Positions 3,724-51,315 of a DNA stretch of 64,000 nucleotides are shown here, one piece after another; position 1 is the first letter of the stretch; each line of letters opens with the position of its first letter. The stretch spans positions 3,224,001 to 3,288,000 of the forward strand of contig NC_043011.1 of assembly GCF_006345805.1 (NCBI RefSeq), in the 5' to 3' direction. The translations under genes and the position numbers were made by a program. Source of the stretch: Octopus sinensis (lineage: Eukaryota). Under the pieces are notes generated by a model. The model saw only the letters and a list, made by a program, of their open reading frames with translations. It ran no database searches and was not told where the DNA came from.

Positions 3724-3766
3724 TTCACTGCATATTCACTGTATATATATACAAACATATATATAC

Positions 3767-3803
<37 letters not shown>

Positions 3804-3841
3804 GAAAGAAGGTTTGAAAATGCAATTTAAAAAATGTTTAT

Positions 3842-3886
3842 TTACTTTACCGGTTTCACTCTTTGGAAAAAGATTGTCAAAAGTAA
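3842..3886 (-). ncRNA. Minimal type-I hammerhead ribozyme, U3-A8 variant (inverted copy)
   Basis: Reverse complement of 4673-4717. Confidence 0.72.
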
Positions 3887-4672
3887 CATGTAGAAGTTTG
3901 GTTGCGTTAATTATTGGTTGTTACAAATTGCTACATTACATATATACAGTCTTTGGTAACAGGGACATATTAAGGACATAAAAAAGTTTAACAAGTTCCT
4001 TGAAATATTGGGCACAAAAGACTACTACATAAATAATCATTCTCAAGGACATGCTTGAAGGAGAGACAAAAAGGGTAAATTCTTTTCAGTTCCACATTAC
4101 TCCTCCTTTCCCCCAACCAAACACACCTACTGTGTCCCTTGAAATAGATAATATTCTTTTATGTTACCATGGTGGACAGGTCAGTTTTAGCTTCACTACT
4201 ATTATAATGTAAACCTTTTTGAACTCATAATATTCTGTACGTGTATACCAATATTTACTGAACTTTTTTAATAATTCCTTCTGGAAATTATCTTGAGAAT
4301 ATATAATATATTTGTTGTAATCTTTTGTGCCCATTATTTCAATGAGCTTGTTAAACTCTTTTCTATTCTCAACATGCTCTTGTCACCAAAGAATGTATAT
4401 TTATATGGATTATAGTACTCTGTGTCAACCAATATTCTGTGCATGTTTGAATATACAGATACAATACCAATACCAATATCAATTCCTTCTGGAAACTATC
4501 TTAAGCATGTCCTTGAGAATGATTATTTATGTAGTAATCTTTTGTACCCAATATTTTAAGGAACTTGTTAAACTTTTTTATGTCCTTAACATGTCCCTGT
4601 CACCAAAGACTGCATATATGTAATGTAGCAATTTGTAACAACCAATAATTAATGCAACCAAACTTCTACATG

Positions 4673-4717
4673 TTACTTTTGACAATCTTTTTCCAAAGAG
4701 TGAAACCGGTAAAGTAA
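4673..4717 (+). ncRNA. Minimal type-I hammerhead ribozyme, U3-A8 variant
   Basis: TTACTT-TTGACAA-TCTTT(TTCC)AAAGA-GT-GAAA-CCGGT-A-AAGTAA; 6-bp stem I, GUA cleavage triplet. Confidence 0.72.
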
Positions 4718-4816
4718 ATAAACATTTTTAAAATTGCATTTTCAAACCTTTCGTATATAATTCCACTCGTGCGGTACCCTACAACTCCAATTTGTTATAT
4801 ATATATATATATATAT

Positions 4817-5465
4817 GGCCTGTGCCAGGGGCGTAACCAGCCCACTTGTGCATACCTTTTCCTTCTTTGGACACTAAACTCTGCTTGCGAAGACTTGTTG
4901 AGGCAAGTGAAGTCAAAATCAAAATCAAAGTGAAATTAGATGACGGGCACGAGCACCATACGAGCGTGGTCGTTGACAGAGCGGCTAACTGGCTTCCGTG
5001 CCAGTGGCACATAAAAGGCGCCATTCGAGTGTGATCATTGCCAGCTTCGCCTTACTGGCACTTGTGCACCGTGCTAGCAGGGTGCTAAGAGCACCATCCG
5101 AGCATTATCATTCCCAGAGCGGCTAACTGGCTTCCATGCCAGTGGCATGTAGGAGGCACCATTCGAGCGGGATCGTTACCAGCATCACCTTACTGGCACC
5201 TGTGCTGTTGGCATGTGTAAAAAATTTGAGCGAGGTCATTGCCAGTACCGCCTGACTGGCCCCTGTGCCGGTGGCACATAAAAGCACCCACTGCACTCTC
5301 AGAGTGGTTGGCGTTAGGAAGGGCATCCAACTGTAGAAACTCTGCCAGATCAAGACTGGAGTCTGGTGCAGCCATCTGGTTCACCAGCCCGCAGTCAAAC
5401 CATCCAACCCAAGCTAGCATGGAAAGCGGATGTTAAACGATGATGATGATGATGATGATGATGAT
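4817..5465 (+). mobile_element. (GAT)n-tailed retroelement 3' UTR (RTE-type), copy 1 of tandem duplication
   Basis: Internal GCCAG..ACTGGC repeats; ends GCATGGAAAGCGGATGTTAAACGATGATG. Confidence 0.75.
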
Positions 5466-5613
5466 GTATATATATATCATCTTCACAAATATTTTCTCCA
5501 GAATTATTTGCTCCGTATATATTAAATATATATATATATATATGAATATATATATATATATTTATATATATTTATATATATTTATATATATTTATATATA
5601 TATATATATATAT

Positions 5614-6262
5614 GGCCTGTGCCAGGGGCGTAACCAGCCCACTTGTGCATACCTTTTCCTTCTTTGGACACTAAACTCTGCTTGCGAAGACTTGTTGAGG
5701 CAAGTGAAGTCAAAATCAAAATCAAAGTGAAATTAGATGACGGGCACGAGCACCATACGAGCGTGGTCGTTGACAGAGCGGCTAACTGGCTTCCGTGCCA
5801 GTGGCACATAAAAGGCGCCATTCGAGTGTGATCATTGCCAGCTTCGCCTTACTGGCACTTGTGCACCGTGCTAGCAGGGTGCTAAGAGCACCATCCGAGC
5901 ATTATCATTCCCAGAGCGGCTAACTGGCTTCCATGCCAGTGGCATGTAGGAGGCACCATTCGAGCGGGATCGTTACCAGCATCACCTTACTGGCACCTGT
6001 GCTGTTGGCATGTGTAAAAAATTTGAGCGAGGTCATTGCCAGTACCGCCTGACTGGCCCCTGTGCCGGTGGCACATAAAAGCACCCACTGCACTCTCAGA
6101 GTGGTTGGCGTTAGGAAGGGCATCCAACTGTAGAAACTCTGCCAGATCAAGACTGGAGTCTGGTGCAGCCATCTGGTTCACCAGCCCGCAGTCAAACCAT
6201 CCAACCCAAGCTAGCATGGAAAGCGGATGTTAAACGATGATGATGATGATGATGATGATGAT
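5614..6262 (+). mobile_element. (GAT)n-tailed retroelement, copy 2 (identical, 797 bp offset)
   Basis: Identical ORF translations at 797-bp offset (4846 vs 5643; 5239 vs 6036). Confidence 0.8.
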
Positions 6263-6383
6263 GTATATATATATCATCTTCACAAATATTTTCTCCAGAA
6301 TTATTTGCTCCGTATATATTAAATATATATATATATATTATATATATATATATGAATATATATATATATATTTTATATATATT

Positions 6384-6431
<48 letters not shown>

Positions 6432-7599
6432 GCACACATATATATATACATGTATCTATACCATACTTCATTTGAAATACTTATCAGCTAATTGTCTTAT
6501 AAATGATATAAATAATATATTATTGTGTCTCTAATAGATTATGTCTTCAATTTTCTTTCCATAGTTTATCAGTCAATTTTCTTACTAGTAATTTAAATTT
6601 TATGTCTTTCATTTCTTTCTTACTTTCAGTAAAAGATGCATTAACAGAATAAAAATAATATTATAGATTGATAGATATGAAATGTTTGTTTCAGCAGAGA
6701 GCAATTAAATTCACTAAAGTACATATGTTGAGTGATTACATTAAAAAATATAGTGCAATAAAAGCTATACTCTTTGCCATTCTCATCCCCATTAACCAAT
6801 ATACCTGACAATGACATCACTGCCACTTTAACAGCTATAACAGTTCTCCATAGAAAAGAAATGGAAAGAAAGAAAAAAACCGAGGTGACTGAAATTATAA
6901 AAATGAATTCTAAAGCTTTCAACAAATTTGCAAAAGAATCTGCCCCACAATAAAATTGTGTCTGAAGAAAAGAACTCACTAAGTGGCAGAGCCTGTGAGA
7001 ATAAGTGAAATACCAAATAAAGAACTCAAGCTGGTTTTCACTTCATCACTGGGAGATATGTAAATAAGCAAAGCCTGTAGATGAAGATAAAAAGAAGTAT
7101 GAACCATCAACATAAACAGCAACTGTTGAGATGAAGTGAATCTCAGCAATGGCCACAAATGGATTGCCAGCTATTCATTTAAAGGCTTGCAAGAAAGCTC
7201 TCACAAAACCACTGCAGGTACTCTTTCAGAGTTTCCTTCCATGTGACAAACTCACCAAAAAGTCAAAAGAATGTATAAGTATGTCCAATCCAAAGAGGAA
7301 GAATAGGAAGAGATATTATGAATTACAGGCTTTTCACTTCAAACTTACATGTTAGCCAAATCGTGGAATGCATAGTCAGAAGGAGGTTGAACACATTCTT
7401 AGAAGAAGATTTCTTGCCCGCAAACACACAACATGGCTTCTATCCAAGGAGGATTTGCTGTCACAGTTACCCCACTGTTTTGAGTGGGTATTGAAACAAC
7501 AGCTCAACCACTCAAATGTGGGTGTGATATATCCTAACCAAGACCTTCAACAAAGTTAATCATAGGATGATATGTCACAGCCAACATGGACTTGATATA

Positions 7600-7825
7600 T
7601 CTGGCAGAAACGTTAGCATGCCGGGCAAAGTGCTTAGCGGTATTTCATCTGCTGTTACGTTCTGAGTTCAAATTCTGACGAGGTTGACTTTGCCTTTCAT
7701 CCTTTCGGGGTCGATAAATTACGTACCAGTTACGCACTGGGGTCGATATAATCGACTTAATCCATTTGTCTGTTCTTGTTTGTCCTCTCTGTGTTTAGCC
7801 CCTTGTTGGTAGTAAAGAAATAGGT
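7600..7825 (+). mobile_element. SINE family B (CTGGCAGAA.CGTTAGCA..., GCCTTTCATCCTTTCGGGGTCGATAAA core)
   Basis: Matches copies at 16950 and 21548; B-box-like GAGTTCAAATTC. Confidence 0.85.
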
Positions 7826-8522
7826 ATTGCTTGAAAACTAGGATAGTGGATGCATGACATTTTTAAAAGGTAGAAGTCAGACAGTTCCAGCCAGTGGTGC
7901 TCTCTGTAAGGGGAGGAGGACATCAATTTCCAGCAGAGTCCTTCAGAGAACTGTACTGGGACCGCTACAGTTTGTAGTGGCTCTCTCAGACATGCCTCAC
8001 TCATACAGTCAGCAACTCTCACTAGATGATACAAAGCAGTCAGAGACTCTGATGACATCCTAAAACTGCAGAAAGACCTAAATGCTGTATACAAATGGGT
8101 GGATGAAAATAGCATGCAGTTCAATGCTGGAAATATTCCAGCACTCTAATTAGCCCACAAATAGATAGCAATCTGGCTTCACTGGATCAGCGGTTAGTGA
8201 ATCCCAGAGTCAATGTATGACCTGAGGATCCACATTTACAATGATTCATCATTCCATGTGCATATTACTAAGATGGCAACGCTGTGCAGGTAAGGGGTTG
8301 GATGGATTCTGAGATAATTCAGAACCAGGTAAAGGATCCCATGCTATTCTTACATTTCTCCTCAGTTACTTAGATAACTGCTCCCAACTGTGGTTGTTGC
8401 AAAGTGTCCAACTGACAGTAGAATTCAAGGCAATCCAATGCCACAACTGAAAGAAATTTTACTCCATGCAACAGATGAGTTGCTGGGAGAGACTAAAAGA
8501 ACTGAGACTCTACTTTCTAGAT

Positions 8523-8720: not shown

Positions 8721-9274
8721 TTCTAGAGAAAAGACATGAGATCCTGGAAGGTGTCGCTTCCAACTCTGGAGCTGAAAGTTATATCAACCACCAAACAGGA
8801 TGCCACTATATTGCACCAAAGATCTTGTCCTTGCCATCTAGAGAATGGACATAATACTGTAACAGTTTAGGTTTCAAAGACCCAAAGCTTTTCAACACTC
8901 TGCCAAACAACCTCAGAGATCTGAAAGGTGTAGATGCAGATGTTTTCAAAGATCATATGGACAAATTATTATCTGATGTCCCAGATGAACCCACATCATG
9001 GTAGAAAATGTGAAGGAGAGCAACTCTGTCCTACTCACTACTCCACTAGAAACAATTCTGGAAAGAAAGAGCTGAAGTGAGCATGAAATGAAAAGTAATC
9101 ACACTAAAGGTGATGCCCCAGCATGACCACAACCTTAGGCTAAAACCAGTAAAAGTAAAAAGTTAATAAAAAGTAAAAAGTGAACAATAATAACAACATT
9201 AATAATAATAGAAATAATAACAGTTTCAAATTTTGGTACAAGGCCAGTAATTGTGGTGAAGTAAGTAAATTGAT

Positions 9275-9665
9275 AACCTGGACGTTATCAAAGAAGCTTG
9301 AGAGGCGGTTGGATGGAACCTACACTCGCCTCCTTATGAGAGCTCAAAATCTCTCGTGGAGGTGCCATCCAACCAAAATGCAAATATATGGGAAACTACC
9401 ACCTGTGTCATCTCTTGTGAAAGGTAGGAGAGTCCAGTTTGCTGGACATTGTTGTAGAGCTGAAAACGAGGTAATCTCTACTCTTCTTCTCTGGAAGCCA
9501 TCTGCTTGCGATGCCAAAGGGCGCACACTCTCCTACCCTGATGTAATCTCCAGGGATACAGGCATCCAGCAAAAGGACCTCCGTAATGCCATGATGGACC
9601 GTGAAGTCTGGCGTAGCATGGTAAATTCCATTGTCTCGACCATGGTCGAACAATGATGATGATGA
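9275..9665 (+). mobile_element. 5'-truncated RTE-group LINE (C-terminal ORF fragment, (GAT)n tail)
   Basis: TWTLSKKLERRLDGTYTRLLMRAQNLSW...RRVQFAGHCCR...DREVWR; TSD AAGTAAATTGAT at 9263-9274 and 9666-9677. Confidence 0.88.
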
Positions 9666-9925: not shown

Positions 9926-10337
9926 AGGTGCAGGAGTGGCTGTGTGGTAAGTAGCCTGTCTATCAACCACATGGTTCCGGGTTCAGTCCCACTGCGTGGC
10001 ATCTTGGGCAAGTATCTTCTGCTATAGCCTCGGGCCGACCAAAGCCTTGTGAGTGGATTTGGCAGACGGAAACTGAAAGAAGCCTGTCGTATTTATGTAT
10101 ATATATATGTATATGTGTGTATATGTTTGTGTGTCTGTGTTTGTCCACCCTAGCATTGCTTGACAACCGATGCTGGCGTGTTTACGTCCCCGTCACTTAG
10201 CGGTTCGGCAAAAGAGACCGATAGAATAAGTACTGGGCTTACAAAGAATAAGTCCCGGGGTCGATTTGCTCGACTAAAGGCGGTGCTCCAGCATGGCCAC
10301 AGTCAAATGACTGAAACAAGTAAAAGAGTAAAAGAGT
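9926..10337 (+). mobile_element. SINE family A (tRNA-like head, internal TA/TG microsatellite, (GTAAAAGA)n tail)
   Basis: A-box-like TGGCTGTGTGG, B-box-like GGTTCAGTCCC; about 20 copies in window. Confidence 0.92.
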
Positions 10338-10539
10338 ATGCTGCCAAGACATTTGTGAAGTTTATGGTGAATGATGCTGTAGGTGAATCAATTGTTCGAA
10401 GGTGGTTTGCAAAATTTAAAGCTGGAGAGTTTAGTTTGGAAGATGACAGTTGCAGTGGAAGACCTTCAAAATTGGATGAAGATGTTTTGAAGGCAAAAAT
10501 CGAAGAAAACTCAAATATCATAACTAGAGAACTTGGAAG

Positions 10540-10735
10540 TTTAGCACACCAGCTGAAATGCTTAGCAGTATTTCTTCTGTCTTTACATTCTGAGTTCAAA
10601 TTCTGCCAAGGTCAACTTTGCTTTTCATCCTTTTGGGGTCGATAAATTAAGTACCAGTTTCATACTGGGGTCGATCTAATTGATCGGCTCCTTCCCCACC
10701 AAATTTCAGGCCTTATACCTTGAGTAAAAAAAGAA
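10540..10735 (+). mobile_element. SINE family B
   Basis: GAGTTCAAATTCTGCCAAGGTCAACTTTGCTTTTCATCC core. Confidence 0.8.
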
Positions 10736-34454: not shown

Positions 34455-35700
34455 AGGAAGCCAGAAATTGAGATTGTTGAAGTCATAGAAATTGTCTTGC
34501 AAACACTTCTGACTCTTTCCAAGGAGCCGAATCCTGCTGCCACACATATGACTTTCCAGCAGCAACCTTCTCCAGCCAGGGCTTGACCACAGTCTCCAGA
34601 AGCTTCACACAGCTGTCTGAATTAAATCTTAGGCCCTGTTCAAAGATCTAAGGCAGCAAGACAACATTCACACTGAAGATACAGTCAGTGACCATCACAG
34701 TTTAAGGGAAATTGATTTTTGTGATATATAGGCGCAGGAGTGGCTGTGTGGTAAGTAGCTTCTTGCTAACCAACCACATGGTTCCGGGTTCAGTCCCACT
34801 GTGTGACATCTTGGGCAAGTGTCTTCTACTATAGCCCCAGGCCGACCAATGCCTTGTGAGTGGATTTGGTAGACGGAAACTGAAAGAAGCCTGTCGTATA
34901 TATGTATATATATATGTATGTGTGTTTGTGTGTGTGTGTTTGTCCCCCTAGCATTGCTTGACAACCTATGCTGATGTGTTTACGTCCCCGTCACTTAGCG
35001 GTTCGGCAAAAGAGACCGATAGAATAAGTACTGGGCTTACAAAGAATAAGTCCCGGGGTCAATTTGCTCGACTAAAGGTGGTGCTCCAGCATGGCCACAG
35101 TCAAATGACTGAAACAAGTAAAAGAGTAAAAGAGTAAAGAGAGTAATAGGATACCACATGGATTGTAGGCAAGGGACCTGTTTTGCAAGATGTTGTGCAA
35201 CTGGTCCTGGAAAAAATGTCTTTTTTTTAATATGTGAAGAAGCAGATCATCTCCAGCTCAGCAAGAAGCCTAAGCTTGTTCAGGAACTTCTTTGCCTTTG
35301 TCAAGCAGTTCTCTTTGGCTCTTTCACCTCTTGTACAGGTGGTAGTGAAGGTGCACTTTTAAAGCCAACTTCATGTTAGTGACTCCAACGCCCATCTCTC
35401 TCACAAAAACCTGGATTCCCTTGCTTGGATCTTCCATCACCTTTCCCTGCAGTTGTTAGATGAATTCTGGTGTGCAGATGCAGTCAAAACAACTGCTGTG
35501 TCTCTTCCTGCTGGCCACAGCTTTGTAATCCCCACTGCAGTTGTTCATGTCATGTTTTATAACCTTGGCAGCACTCACAGAGCATTGAACTGCAGTCGTG
35601 ATGTTCACAGTTTGATACTCAGCAGGAATAAGCTAACACTTTCCCAATACTCAGATGGCTTCCAGTCCTCCATATCTGCCACTTTTTTCTCAACTACTAC
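34455..35700 (-). mobile_element. Decayed DD37D/maT-like transposase, interrupted by SINE A
   Basis: Minus strand AKENCLTKAKKFLNKL..ICFF; IFEQGLRFNSDSCVKLLETVVKPWLEKVAAGKSYVWQQDSAP..NFYDF..FW. Confidence 0.8.
34730..35144 (+). mobile_element. SINE family A
   Basis: Family match. Confidence 0.92.
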
Positions 35701-35810
35701 TCGAACGTTTATGCTATCCAACACTGTTGACTCTTTTCTAAATACATCCATGCCATCCCTGATAAAAAGAAGACATGAAAGATTATCAAATTTAACCCAA
35801 ACATCCTCAA

Positions 35811-35859
35811 TGTGTGTGTATGTGTGTGTGTGTGTATTTGTGTGTGTGTTTGTGTATGT

Positions 35860-35891
<32 letters not shown>

Positions 35892-36165
35892 TTGTGTTTG
35901 TGTGTGTGCTTGTGTGTGTGTGTGTGTGTGTGTATGTGTGTGTTTGTGTTTGTTTGGTTGTGTGTATGTGTGTGTTTGTGTTTGGTTGTGTGTATGTGTG
36001 TGTTTGTGTGTTTCTGTGTGTTTGTGTGTTTGTGTGTGTTTGTGTGTGTGTGTGTTTGTGTGTGTGTGTTTGTGTGTGTGTGAGTGTGTGTGTTTGTGTG
36101 TTTTTGTATGTGTGTGTGCTTGTGTGTGTTTGTGTTTGTGTGTGTGTGAGTGTGTGTGTGTGTGC
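35811..36165. repeat. Imperfect (TG)n microsatellite
   Basis: Direct observation. Confidence 0.95.
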
Positions 36166-36794
36166 GTATACTCATGCATTTACAAATACATTTTACCTTC
36201 CCTTACAATGTTTGTCCTTGTGTCTGTATTCGAAATTTATGCCCCTGTTTCCATATTAAAACTCTGTGACCTTCCCATCATATTAGAATTCACTATTCAA
36301 ATTTGCTGAACTGTTAATTTAGCTTTTAGAATGTTTTTACCAGAGTTATATTTATACATTATTTTGATCAGTTTGATCTCTGATCTTTATCAAATATTTT
36401 ATCCTTTGATATGGTCAGTCTGTTGCATGGTGTATAAGCTTATCACTGCATTTCGAATTGGTTTGATAAAGGTATTATATCTATAAATATTTTACAATAT
36501 TTATATAAACTGGTGATTAATAATCCAGAAAATTATAATCTTATGTCAGACATTTTGACTTTTGGCCAACTACTGACAGAGATGCTGCTGTTGAACCTCA
36601 TGTCCATGCTGATGAGCAGGACACTGACCAGAAGTAGTTCAGCCATAATCTTCACTTTGAAGCAACCAATTTACAAATCACTATGTCCTTTTGTCGTTTT
36701 CATATTCTGAGTTTGTGATATTGTCTAAGATGCCACTTGTGATAGAATCTGTTGAGACAATATTTCAATAATAGAAGTCTGTGTTGCTTGTAGA

Positions 36795-37889
36795 ATAGGT
36801 AACATGTGTCTCCTCCTAATGAGACGATATTTCATCCAAAAATTAATGTTGATACCAGTAATACTTGAAGACATTTATCAACGTCAATAGATAACATGTG
36901 TCTCCTCCTAATGAGACGATATTTCATCCAAAAATTAATGGTGATACCAGTAATACTTGAAGACATTTATCAATGTCAATAGGTAGCATGTGTCTCCTCC
37001 TAATGAGACGATATTTCATCCAAAAATTAATGTTGATACCAGTAATACTTGAAGACATTTATCAATGTCAATAGGTAGCATGTGTCTCCTCCTAATGAGA
37101 CGATATTTCATCCAAAAATTAATGTTGATACCAGTAATACTTGAAGACATTTATCAATGTCAATAGGTAACATGTGTCTCCTCCTAATGAGACGATATTT
37201 CATCCAAAAATTAATGTTGATACCAGTAATACTTGAAGACATTTATCAATGTCAATAGGTAGCATGTGTCTCCTCCTAATGAGACGATATTTCATCCAAA
37301 ATTAATGGTGATACCAGTATACTTGAAGACATTATCAATGTCAATAGGTAACATGTGTCTCCTCCTAATGAGATGATATTTCATCCAAAAATTAATGTTG
37401 ATACCAGTAATACTTGAAGACATTTATCAATGTCAATAGTAACATGTGTCTCCTCCTAATGAGACGATATTTCATCCAAAAATTAATGTTGATACCAGTA
37501 ATACTTGAAGACATTTATCAATGTCAATAGTAACATGTGTCTCCTCCTAATGAGACGATATTTCATCCAAAAATTAATGTTGATACCAGTAATACTTGAA
37601 GACATTTATCAATGTCAATAGGTACATGTGTCTCCTCCTAATGAGACGATATTTCATCCAAAAATTAATGTTGATACCAGTATACTTGAAGACATTTATC
37701 AATGTCAATAGGTAACATGTGTCTCCTCCTAATGAGACGATATTTCATCCAAAAATTAATGTTGATACCAGTAATACTTGAAGACATTTATCAATGTCAA
37801 TAGGTAACATGTGTCTCCTCCTAATGAGATGATATTTCATCCAAAAATTAATGGTGATACCAGTAATACTTGAAGACATTTATCGATGC
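36795..37889. repeat. Minisatellite, 12 x ~92 bp
   Basis: Unit ATAGGTAACATGTGTCTCCTCCTAATGAGACGATATTTCATCCAAAAATTAATGTTGATACCAGTAATACTTGAAGACATTTATCAATGTCA at 36795, 36887, 36979... Confidence 0.97.
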
Positions 37890-38529
37890 TTTATCAATGA
37901 GAATTAAATTGTGATATCTTAGGAAGTGAACTTGCTCGTATCAATTAAGAGTATTGATTGTTAAAATATGCTACATGTTGTCATATGACCTAACAGTAGT
38001 GATGCACCAGTAACAGCCCATGTAGCACGTGACACATTAAGGTTGTTGTTCCTCAGAACCAAAAATATAATATTCATTAAATAAGTTTTACCACATCCCC
38101 CTGAATCTTTGATATAAAAGAGACAGCATTCCAAACTCAATTCTCTTCTCTTCTTTTCAACTGCATTTATCACCACGTTATTCAAATTAGTTGAATTAAC
38201 TTAATAACATTAAAGTTCTCATTCGTTCATGTTCTTAAATCATCCCTGAAGTTCTGGTCATCCTACTTTCTGGCAACTCCTTCCATTTTAGATTAAAATT
38301 TGATTTATTGAATGAAGGGATGAGTGTTCTGCTTTGCTTTGCTGTCTTTTTATGCCAAAAAAAAAATGAAGAAAAATTCTGGAATCATTTGTATTGTAAA
38401 AGAGTTCCAAAGCTGAATTGCATTTTGAGCATTACAAAATGCACAAACAGCTGCAAACATTACTCTAAGATATAATGGCATCTTAAATATTGAAGTTTCC
38501 TCTAAAAATGGTATTAGAAATATCATTAT

Positions 38530-45279: not shown

Positions 45280-45310
<31 letters not shown>

Positions 45311-45313
<3 letters not shown>

Positions 45314-45977
45314 AAAAAAGGTTTGAAAATGCAATTTAAACGATGTTTATTTACTTAACCGGTTTCACTCTTTGGTAAAAGATTGTCAAAAGTTACATTT
45401 AAGGAAACATTGAATAATATGGGTTCAAAAAAAGTTTTTTACATAATTGTCACATTGAATATTATGCATTCAAAAAAGTTTTTACATAATTGTCACATTG
45501 GATATTATGGATTCAAAAATGTTTTTTTATACATAATTGTCACATTACATGTATAAATATAGTGTTTGGTAACAGAGAAGTTCAATAGTGTGATGAGAAT
45601 ATTTGGGAAAATTTGGCAGAAAAGGATAAAACAAATATATTATTGGGAATTGGTTGCGTTAATTATTGGTTGTCGCAAATTGTCACATTACATGTATATA
45701 TATACAATCTTCGGTATATATATACAGCCTTTTGACAGCAAAAATTAAAATGGATTTTTTATACATCTCAGAATATTTTAAGTACAAGGCGAGAATATGT
45801 TTTTACTGACCTGTTGGTATTAGCAGAAAGGCTGAACTGAGAGAACAGAGGAAGTAGCCAATGTGGTGTATACTTCCCCTTTATGCATGAATGATTTTGG
45901 GGTTATCAGGAGGTTAGTATGCGGGTGTGAATAGATGTGTCCGTGCCCGCTGGTCAGATAGCGTCTGTTTGTCACAC

Positions 45978-46017
<40 letters not shown>

Positions 46018-46201
46018 CAACACACACACACACACACATATAGTAAACAAACACACACCACATACAAACAACACACACACACACACAGAACACACACACC
46101 CACACACAACGCACCCACATATATCACATATACACACAGCACACAAATATAATATGTATCTATATATAACATACACAGATATATAACACACATACACACA
46201 C

Positions 46202-46236
<35 letters not shown>

Positions 46237-47011
46237 CACACGCACACATACATACGTAATATAAATATCACACAAATACACCTAGCATATATATACACAC
46301 ATACAATACACACATACAGCATGTAAGTAATATACATACACAATATATGCATGCAATATACATACGCAGTACATACATATAATATATATATATAGACAAT
46401 GCATATACATATATACACATATACATATAAATAGTGTTTACATACACATACATAGATGTACCACATATACACAAATACACATACATACAACGCATACACA
46501 TACACGTACGCATACATATAATATATACACACACACACACATAACATACATACACAATGTATACATATATATACACGCAATGCACATACATGTATTCATG
46601 CATATAGCACACCTACAATATACATATATACACTGCACACATACACACACATATATACACTTAATTGTACACATACATATACAATACACATACATACAAT
46701 ATACATATACACAATGCGCATGCAAATAATGTACATGTTTATACACACATAAACAAGCAAATAAATATACACACACACACATACACACATACACATATAT
46801 ATATATATATACACACATACATACATACATACATGCACATACATATATTTTTTCACACACATACACATACATATATATATATATAAAAAATTCACCCCCC
46901 CCCCACACAAATTACAACCTATAGCGTACACACTCAAATATATCTCTACATGCCGCACACACACAAACAAAGTACTAACATATACACACATACCATGCAT
47001 ATACACACACA

Positions 47012-47047
<36 letters not shown>

Positions 47048-47125
47048 TTAAAAACAAATACACATGTAAATACATACATACGTACATAATGCTCACACAC
47101 ACACACACATACACACACACCCGTA
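45311..47125 (-). repeat. Left inverted arm of PLE (inverted copy of 3' UTR/pLTR)
   Basis: Reverse complement of 49567-51244; joins the RT ORF at CACACCCGTA|ATAAT. Confidence 0.93.
45353..45393 (-). ncRNA. Minimal type-I hammerhead ribozyme, U3-A8 variant (inverted-arm copy)
   Basis: Exact reverse complement of 51162-51202. Confidence 0.7.
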
Positions 47126-49200
47126 ATAATATCGACGAATCAATGGTCTGTAACAAAAGCAACTATAATCCCATAAAAGGCAAAAACAAAACCTTAGACA
47201 AATTTTGCGATTACATCTCCAACTTCCCTTATGGTGAACTCCCACAACCTAAACTCAAACCGAACACCAGTAAAAGAGAATGGGAAATCATCCATACGCT
47301 ACGAGACAATCATGACGTCACAATAAAGGAAGCTGATAAGGGTAGTACGGTCGTTGTTATGAATACTGAGCAATATAAAAACTCTGTATCTCTCCTTTTA
47401 GAGGATACCACATACTACGAAAGAGTAGTCGACTACCAGCAATCCAAAACAATGACCAATCTGAAGGCACTCATTTACCAACACCGGAATGACTTGACAG
47501 CAAAGGAATGCGACTACATTACTAAATTTAATTGCAAAACCAGCACACTCTATGGGCTTCCAAAAATACACAAGAGTCAAATTATCACAGAAGCTTGCAA
47601 AAAGTCCACTTCAACCTGCATCACTATACCACATCCCACTGATCTCAAACTGAGACCAATAGTGGCAGGCCCAAGTTGTGAAACACACAGACTTAGCAAC
47701 TTTATAGATATCATCTTAAAGCCAATACTGAAACACATTCCAAGTATTGTAAGAGATGACCTGGACCTATTAAAGCATCTCCCCAACATGCCGATAAAGA
47801 CACCTTAATCGTTTCTTTTGATGTTATTAATCTTTACACCACAATCCCACATGAATTTGGACTGGAAGCCATTAAATTCTGGCTGGATAAATATCCCAAT
47901 GAGATCCCGGAAAGAATTAAAAAAGAATTCATAATTGAGGGCCTCAAATTTATTCTGCAAAACAACTTCATGTATTTCCACAACAACACTTACAGACAGG
48001 TCTCAGGTACTGCAATGGGTACGAAAGTTGCACCTACCTATGCAAACCTGGTGATGGCCTACCTGGAATCACATATCTATGAAAAATCCAAATATAAGTA
48101 CGGCCAGTCTTTCCACAAATACCTGTTGGAGAACTGGAAACGCTACTTAGATGATTGCCTCATCCTATGGTCCCACACACTCGACCAACTTATAGACTTC
48201 AAAAACCTTATCAACAGTGTAAATAACAACATTCAATTCACAATGGAATATAGTCAGGACCAACTCCCTTTTCTTGACATCCTAATCATTAAAAAAGGCG
48301 TCAACATTGAAACTGACATCCATTACAAACCCACTGACTCTAAACAATACCTTCTATTCACCTCCAATCACCCAAAACACACAAAGACAGATATCCCCTT
48401 CAACCTAGCGAGAAGAATCTGCACTATTGTCTCAAATGACACAACACGAAATAGAAGACTCCGGGAACTAAGGGCAATTCTTCTCGAAAGACATTACCCG
48501 GCATCACTAGTAGACAACGGAATAGAACGGGCCAAATCAATCAACATTCAAGACCTTCGAAAACCCAAACACATCCACAGTACAGTCAATAGCCTCCCTT
48601 ATCTCTCAACACACAACCCAAGGAATGCAGAAGCTTACACTATTATATACAACAACATTCCACAACTAAATCAAGACCCACGCCTGAAAAAAATACTGGC
48701 AGCTCATAAAATAATAAAAAGTAAGAGACAACCTAAATCCCTAAAAAGCCTCCTCACCAATGCAAAATTACACAACACAAACCCACCGCCCACCATCAAA
48801 AAAATGTGGTCGCCCCAACTGCAAGACCTGCATCCACCTCATTGAGGGATCATCGTACAAGTTCCACTCGGGACACACATTCATCATAAAAAATAATTTC
48901 ACGTGCGCATCAAAAAATTTACTCTACGTCATAAGGTGTGAAGGATGCCACGAAGATTACATAGGGCAAACGAGCCTTACCCTCAGAGACAGAATGACAG
49001 TTCACCGACAACAACTGAGGGACCCCTCCACAAGACAGATACCACTAAGTGGACACTTAGACCTTTGTGCACACAATAAGTCCCCCAAATTCTTAGTCTT
49101 CCCACTATACCAATGCTCGGACAACACCACAGACCAAACACGAATAAATAAGGAAAGTAATCTTATTCAAAAATACAGACCACAACTAAACATACTCTAA
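47121..49200 (+). pseudogene. PLE reverse transcriptase + C-terminal GIY-YIG endonuclease (Neptune/Naiad-type with Cys-rich linker); 5'-truncated, two 1-bp frameshifts
   Basis: Motifs IKEADKG, YGLPKIHK, LRPIVAG, SFDVINLYT (frame after ~47790), GTAMGTKVAPTYANL, RYLDD, LPFLD, YKPTD..HP, CGRPNCKTC, LYVIRC..C..YIGQT..RMTVH. Spread over ORFs 47089-47808, 47970-48845 and 48760-49200. Confidence 0.95.
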
Positions 49201-49385
49201 CATACCCCCTGGAGACACATCCAGAGCAAGCACACAGGGACGCGTGCACGCTCACAGCATATCGTGCGGGCGGGCACATGCGTGCATCGGCACGCATAGG
49301 ACACACTAGCGGGCATTGACCGCACACATACGTGGCATGCACACGCATGCATTATATATATGTAGGTGATGTATGTGTGTGAGTG

Positions 49386-49419
<34 letters not shown>

Positions 49420-49566
49420 ACGTTGTGTGTGTGTGTGCGCGGGTGTATATATATATGTGTGTGTGTGTGTGCACTGTGTGCGTGTGTGTGTATGTGTGTG
49501 CGTGCACGCGCGTTGTGTGTATGTGTGTGTGCACGTGTGTATATATGTGTGTGTGTGTGCACTGTG

Positions 49567-49639
49567 TACGGGTGTGTGTGTATGTGTGTGTGTGTGAGCA
49601 TTATGTACGTATGTATGTATTTACATGTGTATTTGTTTT

Positions 49640-49680
<41 letters not shown>

Positions 49681-49872
49681 TGTGTGTGTATATGCATGGT
49701 ATGTGTGTATATGTTAGTACTTTGTTTGTGTGTGTGTGCGGCATGTAGAGATATATTTGAGTGTGTACGCTATAGGTTGTAATTTGTGTGTGGGGGGGGT
49801 GAATTTTTTATATATATATATGTGTATGTGTGTGTGTGTGTATATATATATATATGTATGTGTATGTGTGTA

Positions 49873-49905
<33 letters not shown>

Positions 49906-50330
49906 GTGTATATATGTGTGTGTGTGTATGTGTGTGTGTGTATATTTATTTGCTTGTTTATGTGTGTATAAACATGTACATTATTTGCATGCGCATTGTG
50001 TATATGTATATTGTATGTATGTTATGTGTGTGTGTGTGTATATATATATTATATGTATGCGTACGTGTATGTGTATGCGTTGTATGTATGTGTATTGTGT
50101 GTATATGTGGTACATCTATGTATGTGTATGTAAACACTATTTATATGTATATGTGTATATATGTATATGCATTGTCTATATATATATATTATATGTATGT
50201 ACTGCGTATGTATATTGCATGCATATATTGTGTATGTATATTACTTACATGCTGTATGTGTGTATTGTATGTGTGTATATATATGCTAGGTGTATTTGTG
50301 TGATATTTATATTACGTATGTATGTGTGCG

Positions 50331-50380
<50 letters not shown>

Positions 50381-50548
50381 TTATATATCTGTGTATGTTA
50401 TATATAGATACATATTATATTTGTGTGCTGTGTGTATGTGATATATGTGGGTGCGTTGTGTGTGGGTGTGTGTGTTCTGTGTGTGTGTGTGTGTTGTTTG
50501 TATGTGGTGTGTGTTTGTTTACTATATGTGTGTGTGTGTGTGTGTTGT

Positions 50549-50579
<31 letters not shown>

Positions 50580-51244
50580 GTGTGACAAACAGACGCTATC
50601 TGACCAGCGGGCACGGACACATCTATTCACACCCGCATACTAACCTCCTGATAACCCCAAAATCATTCATGCATAAAGGGGAAGTATACACCACATTGGC
50701 TACTTCCTCTGTTCTCTCAGTTCAGCCTTTCTGCTAATACCAACAGGTCAGTAAAAACATATTCTCGCCTTGTACTTAAAATATTCTGAGATGTATAAAA
50801 AATCCATTTTAATTTTTGCTGTCAAAAGGCTGTATATATATACCGAAGATTGTATATATATACATGTAATGTGACAATTTGCGACAACCAATAATTAACG
50901 CAACCAATTCCCAATAATATATTTGTTTTATCCTTTTCTGCCAAATTTTCCCAAATATTCTCATCACACTATTGAACTTCTCTGTTACCAAACACTATAT
51001 TTATACATGTAATGTGACAATTATGTATAAAAAAACATTTTTGAATCCATAATATCCAATGTGACAATTATGTAAAAACTTTTTTGAATGCATAATATTC
51101 AATGTGACAATTATGTAAAAACTTTTTTGAACCCATATTATTCAATGTTTCCTTAAATGTAACTTTTGACAATCTTTTACCAAAGAGTGAAACCGGTTAA
51201 GTAAATAAACATCGTTTAAATTGCATTTTCAAACCTTTTTTCTT
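49567..51244 (+). repeat. Right arm of PLE (microsatellite-rich 3' UTR plus pLTR)
   Basis: Cryptic (TG/TA) region, then unique sequence from ~50580 including a ~44-bp x3 repeat (51005-51145) and the HHR. Confidence 0.93.
51162..51202 (+). ncRNA. Minimal type-I hammerhead ribozyme, U3-A8 core variant
   Basis: ACTT-TTGACAA-TCTTT(TACC)AAAGA-GT-GAAA-CCGGT-T-AAGT: stem I ACTT/AAGT, stem II TCTTT/AAAGA, palindromic stem III ACCGGT. Confidence 0.7.
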
Positions 51245-51279
51245 ATATAATCCCACTCGTGCGATACCCCACAACTCAA

Positions 51280-51315
<36 letters not shown>

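Follow-up and report, generated by a model that had tools for sequence, protein, structure and literature searches.

The motif at positions 51162..51202 (plus strand) of the Octopus sinensis DNA analyzed here, a 64-kb stretch called the window, is probably a minimal type I hammerhead in the pLTR of a Neptune-like Penelope element (PLE). Its core would carry a U3-A8 pair and stem II would likely open with a U10.1·U11.1 mismatch, with no insert; slow cleavage, confined to paired motifs and helped by protein, is the likely mode of action. This reading is favored by the position of the motif in the pLTR, by the covariation seen in stems I and II and at the 3-8 pair, and by tandem same-strand motifs.

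Hammerhead motifs in the window

The pattern TTGACAA-N(8-30)-GAAACCGGT has four matches in the 64-kb window and none in each of 100 shuffles. This search and the sequence bear out the four copies described in a first-pass annotation, at the positions and with the loops, triplets and stem I sizes given there. Copy A+ (51162..51202, plus strand) was delimited by pattern match, register comparison and a folding model. Its stem I is formed by 51162-65 and 51199-202, its core U3-A9 occupies 51166-72, and U10.1 lies at 51173. In the favored register, stem II pairs 51174-78 with 51183-87 around a loop at 51179-82, and U11.1 lies at 51188. G12-A15.1 follow at 51189-92, the palindrome ACCGGU spans 51192-97, and the predicted cut is after U17 at 51198. 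An identical copy, A- (45353..45393, minus strand), lies in the inverted arm of element A. Copy B+ (4673..4717, plus strand) has a 6-bp stem I, a TTCC loop and a GUA triplet, with a predicted cut after 4711, and copy B- (3842..3886, minus strand) lies in the inverted arm of element B. All four have the core UUGACAA, GAAA and the palindrome ACCGGU, and the two pairs differ in the stem II loop (TACC or TTCC), the cleavage triplet (GUU or GUA) and stem I length (4 versus 6 bp). Core boxes 3-9, G12-A15.1 and U16.1-H17 are present in type I order (UUGACAA, GAAA, GUU/GUA). The four copies trace to two insertion events, each with its own inverted duplicate arm (45306-51249 and 3797-4817), which qualifies the original count.

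The first-pass annotation had also treated conservation of the unusual core across two PLE subfamilies as evidence, and this argument is not supported. Loci with the TTCC loop and GUA triplet (L161 and L162) carry their own reverse transcriptase-endonuclease (RT-EN). It is 92-94% identical to the pair A family's over three stretches out of four, and 82% identical over the remaining, degraded one. Stem II is the same letter for letter in both window subfamilies, and their traits mix freely in other copies, such as TTCC with GUU or TACC with a 6-bp stem I. Because the two are close sisters, agreement between them is not independent and says little about selection.

An AATAAA lies directly 3' of stem I at 51203-51208 and 4718-4723, 5 nt beyond the predicted cut. 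It belongs to the window's family and is missing from more distant ones.

The host element

The main copy of element A (47124..51249, plus strand) is a 5'-truncated Neptune-like PLE that aligns to a full-length copy, L179, at 3755-7997. Its RT-EN frame (47122..49197, plus strand) is read in three pieces through two frameshifts: 47122-47805, 47760-48842 with the reverse transcriptase domain (PF00078, E 2.6e-7), and 48745-49197 with the GIY-YIG domain (PF01541, E 3e-5) and a CX4CxxC linker. An inverted duplicate of the 3' region (45306..47123, minus strand) stands back to back with the main copy. The plus arm ends in a PLE "tail" of ~37 bp (51250..51286, plus strand) followed by (TA)n, and the minus arm runs straight into (TA)n without a tail. 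Element B is a sister subfamily copy truncated to its 3' UTR (4051..4817, plus strand), a span that takes in the tail and where the (TA)n flank begins; it is 92.9% identical over 776 nt to L161, which has its own RT-EN, and has an inverted 260-nt arm (3797..4056, minus strand). Both window insertions sit in (TA)n.

A set of marks that includes a CX2-5CxxC linker is given for C-terminal-endonuclease PLEs of the Neptune type in the covered part of PMC8557442. The window element has the reverse transcriptase followed by a C-terminal GIY-YIG and the CX4CxxC linker in frame 48745-49197, as well as tandem or inverted arms, a one-sided tail (30-40 bp in the type) and a microsatellite target. By domain order, linker, arms and tail, the host appears to be a Neptune-like PLE; the RT trees hold rows from this genome alone.

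Full-length L179 carries same-strand motifs at 2062 and 7914, 5,852 nt apart, flanking two open frames, and same-strand pairs also occur in L128, L177 and L181. Two features run counter to the preferred reading. The 5' motif of L179 bears a C10.2A change, and among the 100 exact copies listed, all 17 neighbor pairs within 10 kb are divergent and none is direct. Most insertions, the window's included, would therefore yield one sense motif per transcript.

Long upstream open frames are found in full-length elements (L179:2116-3558, plus; L184:2105-3415, plus; L189:5778-7262, minus), with 437-495 amino acids from stop to stop and no match above the cut-off in Pfam. In L184 and L189 the upstream frame runs into the beginning of the RT-EN frame, which is in a different phase, and in L179 the RT-EN frame is interrupted close to its start. 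A single ORF is the arrangement described for canonical EN+ PLEs. The upstream frame could be a true ORF1, or reflect a programmed frameshift or an intron-split single ORF. A 537-aa open frame in L144 (1637-3247, plus) resembles a different PLE-type RT by eye and has no match to the RT of the window's family at E 1e-6. The next hammerhead, 4.3 kb downstream, is that of a sister family, and the frame may be unrelated to it.

Genome-wide distribution and the 3-8 pair

Pattern searches, as proposed for cephalopod genomes, showed the motif to be abundant in this one. The 32-mer occurs 795 times without a mismatch in the 2.72-Gb genome (control 0), and YTGANRAN{12,22}GAAACCGGTH has 8,185 matches versus 157 for the reversed control. 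By class, 140 matches are C3-G8 (control 29), 150 are U3·G8 (24) and 219 are C3·A8 (44). Subtraction leaves ~7,676 U3-A8 motifs with the ACCGGU palindrome (~7,700), an approximate figure, as spacers shorter than 12 nt are missed or counted via an upstream false core and motifs with other helix III palindromes lie outside the count. Watson-Crick combinations at 3-8 (~7,676 U-A and 140 C-G) thus compare with 369 mismatched ones among ACCGGU-palindrome motifs, and the mismatched rows listed are mostly one-letter derivatives of U3-A8 families. The first-pass annotation predicted that CUGANGA searches would miss this variant, as they do, and Rfam is likewise blind. Rfam hammerhead families gave no match at the gathering threshold in six loci, one of them a C3-G8 copy, and a scan of the window gave no hammerhead among the 150 of 212 matches listed.

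U3-A8 motifs occur downstream of RTs only 55-62% identical to that of the window's family. Stem II in these divergent families is GGUC/GACC, AGUC/GACU, GC/GC, GCAU/AUGC or CAGU/ACUG, and stem I is 3-7 bp long and altered on both strands. Compensatory change was found at six of the eight pairs of stems I and II in alignment A1, which contains 13 hand-picked, related UC..GU sequences out of 26 distinct spacers, with most visibly decayed singletons omitted. Covariation of both stems across family copies, which had been put forward as a check on the fold, is accordingly found in A1 and in the further families.

The C3-G8 rows come mostly from a single tandem family of 360 nt with stem II GAGG/CCUC. 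Among the first 100 of its 300 copies listed, 59 are U3-A8, 34 C3-G8, 6 C3·A8 and 1 U3·G8 (assigned by eye), so that 3-8 is paired in 93 of the 100 in a family that holds both forms. A tree of 41 rows, built with positions 3 and 8 masked, places its 19 U3-A8 rows on one branch (100/99) and its three C3·A8 rows on another (97/95), with the fork a polytomy. The tree points to one compensatory 3-8 switch and not many, and to a C3·A8 lineage that was able to spread. The order C3-G8 to C3·A8 to U3-A8 via CpG decay is one possibility that fits this tree, given the polytomy and a bootstrap that had not settled. A compensatory U3-A8 pair, as first proposed, is supported by the class counts and by the switch within this family. 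The spread of the small C3·A8 clade, together with a C3·A8 triplet in L137, counts against the preferred reading, since the mismatch is no block to mobilization.

The 360-nt repeat is retrozyme-like, has a GC content of 51% and occurs in tandem and inverted arrays (L139, L140, L106 and L247; for example, G000:C4:158033750-158034646), with C3-G8, C3·A8 and U3-A8 subfamilies among its 300 pattern copies. Another U3-A8 family (L189, L190, L178, L017 and L025) pairs 1-2 bp in stem II and 7 bp in stem I, and has a second core-like heptamer, UUGAGAA, upstream that overlaps the 5' strand of stem I. Some RT families appeared to be without a hammerhead; this was rejected when motifs were found once shorter spacers or a non-intact GAAA were allowed.

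Register of stem II

The 16 letters between A9 and G12 can form 5 bp in either of two registers. The first-pass annotation paired UCUUU with AAAGA, all Watson-Crick, and left GU extruded before G12, a functional core with a 2-nt insert (register A). Alternatively, U10.1 stands opposite U11.1 and CUUUU pairs with AAGAG (register B). ViennaRNA favors register A in the window's family by 0.6-0.9 kcal/mol, with pair probabilities of 0.71-0.75 versus 0.15-0.20 for B. This modeled preference counts against the U·U start, and each of the 795 exact copies could form register A. The closest sister families have the same UC...GU ends, and there register A fails. The sister family UCUUUUUCUAAAAAAGU (278 pattern copies; RT 81% identical in L218) forms 6 bp in register B and 1 in A, and the family UCAGUGUAAACUGU (142 pattern copies; RT ~55%) forms 4 bp in B and none in A. 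In alignment A1, stem II is 92.3% paired in register B with two of four pairs altered on both sides, versus 57.8% paired in register A with none of five pairs so altered; the search pattern itself prescribed the C-G at 10.2-11.2, the rows are related to one another, and shuffle statistics for A1 are not to be taken as probabilities. The other family with an apparent 2-nt insert ("AC") was rejected as a parallel, as its true core was located 9 nt downstream and has G10.1-C11.1 plus 7 bp in stem I, and no family among those examined in this genome needs an insert. A core with an inserted GU therefore seems improbable to us. The GU is probably a register error, and stem II probably begins with U10.1·U11.1 followed by C10.2-G11.2. 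A variant that keeps both registers supposes that the single G lets stem II slide by two bases between a resting, GU-extruded state and a catalytic U·U state, with a dimer or protein triggering cleavage, or else that the extruded-GU form is itself the active core, with an unreported 2-nt insert. We regard this too as doubtful.

Motifs that start with UC and end with GU number 1,977 in the genome (control 0). The U·U families form one side of a 100/100 split in an RT tree of 17 rows, all from this genome and without an outgroup, in which the long branch of the most distant family comes from a stretch read across a break. Position 10.1-11.1 in the window's clade is probably U·U and not the typical, though non-universal, paired R10.1-Y11.1, which is usually G-C. 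Because natural U·U cases have been published, the mismatch lowers the standing of the motif as a consensus minimal hammerhead and not its standing as a hammerhead. An old, decayed family (L104, L054 and L096) has a seeming A·A at 10.1-11.1 before GGG/CCC.

Folding, dimerization and proposed mechanism

A minimal type I fold, as drawn in the first-pass annotation, is supported in part. The placement of the motif in PLE ends and the covariation agree with it; the fold itself was drawn by hand, and the MFE structures are different ones, with scores like those of shuffles (z -0.22 and -0.07). The monomer hammerhead fold, with a 1-bp helix III, is predicted to be unstable (dG +3.4 to +6.7 kcal/mol). 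The self-complementary ACCGGU, earlier named as a palindromic stem III, is present and suggests action as a dimer; its self-duplex has -8.3 kcal/mol. The modeled double-hammerhead dimer reaches -7 to -13.5 kcal/mol versus -16 to -19 for other cofolds, one of which lengthens the palindrome to AACCGGUU and buries U17. These more stable predicted cofolds weigh against the preferred reading and make it likely that a chaperone, for example the element's protein, is needed, as in the anole PLE.

Judging by what is published on PLE hammerheads, transcripts running through tandem pLTRs would fold into a double hammerhead whose helix III, of 6 bp, is intermolecular, and cutting after position 17 (U17 or A17) would release unit-length RNA. 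In L179 the predicted cut would precede the upstream frame's first ATG by ~120 nt. In the active register, stem II would stack C-G, U-A, U·G, U-A and U-A on the U·U beside the G12·A9 pair. The window copies point away from each other and would give one sense motif per transcript; a dimer would be possible only in trans. Activity would probably be low, with help from a chaperone such as the element's protein, and cleavage would likely be weak and limited to pairs. That the variant is functional, as the first-pass annotation held, we infer. Contigs from four presumed-RNA runs cover the 5' pLTR motif of L179; assembled contigs show neither ends nor strand, and these weigh neither for nor against expression or cleavage.

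A different account would make the motif a hammerhead descendant kept as a folded RNA signal, such as a dimerization or protein-binding site, with little or no cleavage in this lineage. We consider this unlikely but worth weighing, since the motif combines two weakening variants with stems rich in A-U, the model finds the monomer fold unstable and the dimer inferior to its competitors, C3·A8 lineages have spread, and cleavage was dispensable for anole PLE insertion in vitro. Against it, U4 G5 A6, G12 A13 A14 and the NUH site are fixed across RTs 55-62% identical while the stems turn over, a fixity partly built in because the searches required these letters, and the 3-8 pair, important for the catalytic fold, switches as a pair. 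The folding energies, which are like those of shuffles, and the lack of an Rfam match could also suit a chance resemblance in A-T-rich repeat DNA. This idea is refuted by the 8,185 matches versus 157 in the control, the fixed place in PLE 3' ends and the covariation in two helices and the 3-8 pair, and its probability is negligible.

Comparison with known hammerheads

Minimal hammerheads with weak, dimer-only cleavage, palindromic helix III and opposite-strand pairs are known from the pLTRs of PLEs (the 2014 study by Cervera and De la Pena, PMC4209133, in the parts covered). The same source reports U3-A8 covariation in the Cercyon PLEs of Schistosoma mansoni, with ~1,300 matches, and natural U3-A8 covariation in several ribozymes was described earlier in the covered parts of Perreault et al. 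2011 (PMC3088659). U3-A8 is therefore not new: it was reported in nature in 2011 and in Schistosoma PLE hammerheads in 2014. The window motifs resemble Cercyon, as far as PMC4209133 was covered, in the minimal type I form within pLTRs, U3-A8, a short stem I, a palindromic helix III region, copies that are mostly single or on opposite strands, and a dimer requirement, here predicted. They differ in the U·U at 10.1-11.1, which is lacking from the rows of Fig. S3 that were covered; the Cercyon consensus given there has G10.1-C11.1 and, following A9, one additional base. A 6-nt ACCGGU palindrome makes up helix III here and the host is Neptune-like, unlike the Cercyon case described. U3-A8 is the majority among motifs with the ACCGGU palindrome here and a minority there.

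A natural stem II start of U10.1-U11.1, termed the best-tolerated mismatch, is also described in PMC3088659. In the covered parts of that paper the two variants are separate rare cases, whereas in this genome at least three retrotransposon families have fixed the two in combination. In the literature covered, neither this combination nor a hammerhead from the window's element was found. What appears to be new is U3-A8 and U10.1·U11.1 fixed together in up to ~2,000 copies. Taken singly, each feature has been published, which limits the surprise; the combination adds a modest new variation on a structurally conserved PLE hammerhead.

The hammerhead of PAc, a Poseidon PLE from Anolis, needs its protein, and compensation between C3 and G8 was shown for it experimentally (Frangieh et al. 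2024, PMC11167929, in the parts covered). According to the same parts, ribozyme cleavage was not needed for insertion of this anole PLE in vitro and no RNA ends were seen at the cut site. The window motif is like PAc in being a pLTR hammerhead upstream of a 30-40-bp tail. PAc as described there has a canonical C3-G8 and an ORF that begins within stem II, whereas the first ATG here comes ~120 nt beyond the cut site. The 360-nt tandem family with the GAGG/CCUC stem II resembles metazoan non-LTR retrozymes (PMC7229834 and bioRxiv 10.64898/2026.07.22.740005, each in the parts covered), unlike the window copies, which belong to an autonomous RT-EN element and not to a short tandem repeat. Hammerheads are mentioned in the covered part of the giant squid genome paper (PMC6962438) only as 235 Rfam hits.

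CUGANGA and Rfam searches miss most such hammerheads in this genome (~7,700 versus 140 among ACCGGU-palindrome motifs). If the motif cleaves, a hammerhead with U3-A8 and U10.1·U11.1 has supported retrotransposon families of up to ~2,000 copies, and the range of the tolerated hammerhead core is widened. The genome also offers a natural panel: one family holds C3-G8, C3·A8 and U3-A8, position 10.1-11.1 occurs as G-C, A-U and U·U, and stem II has 2-6 bp. Such a panel suits the question of whether cleavage by PLE hammerheads plays a part in retrotransposition.

Other features of the window

A tandem array of a 91-92-nt repeat spans 36702-37956, with adjacent copies up to 97-99% identical. Open frames at 35363-36256, 9177-9653 and 10154-10642 (all plus strand) resemble, by eye, fragments of other retrotransposons and a mariner-type transposase.
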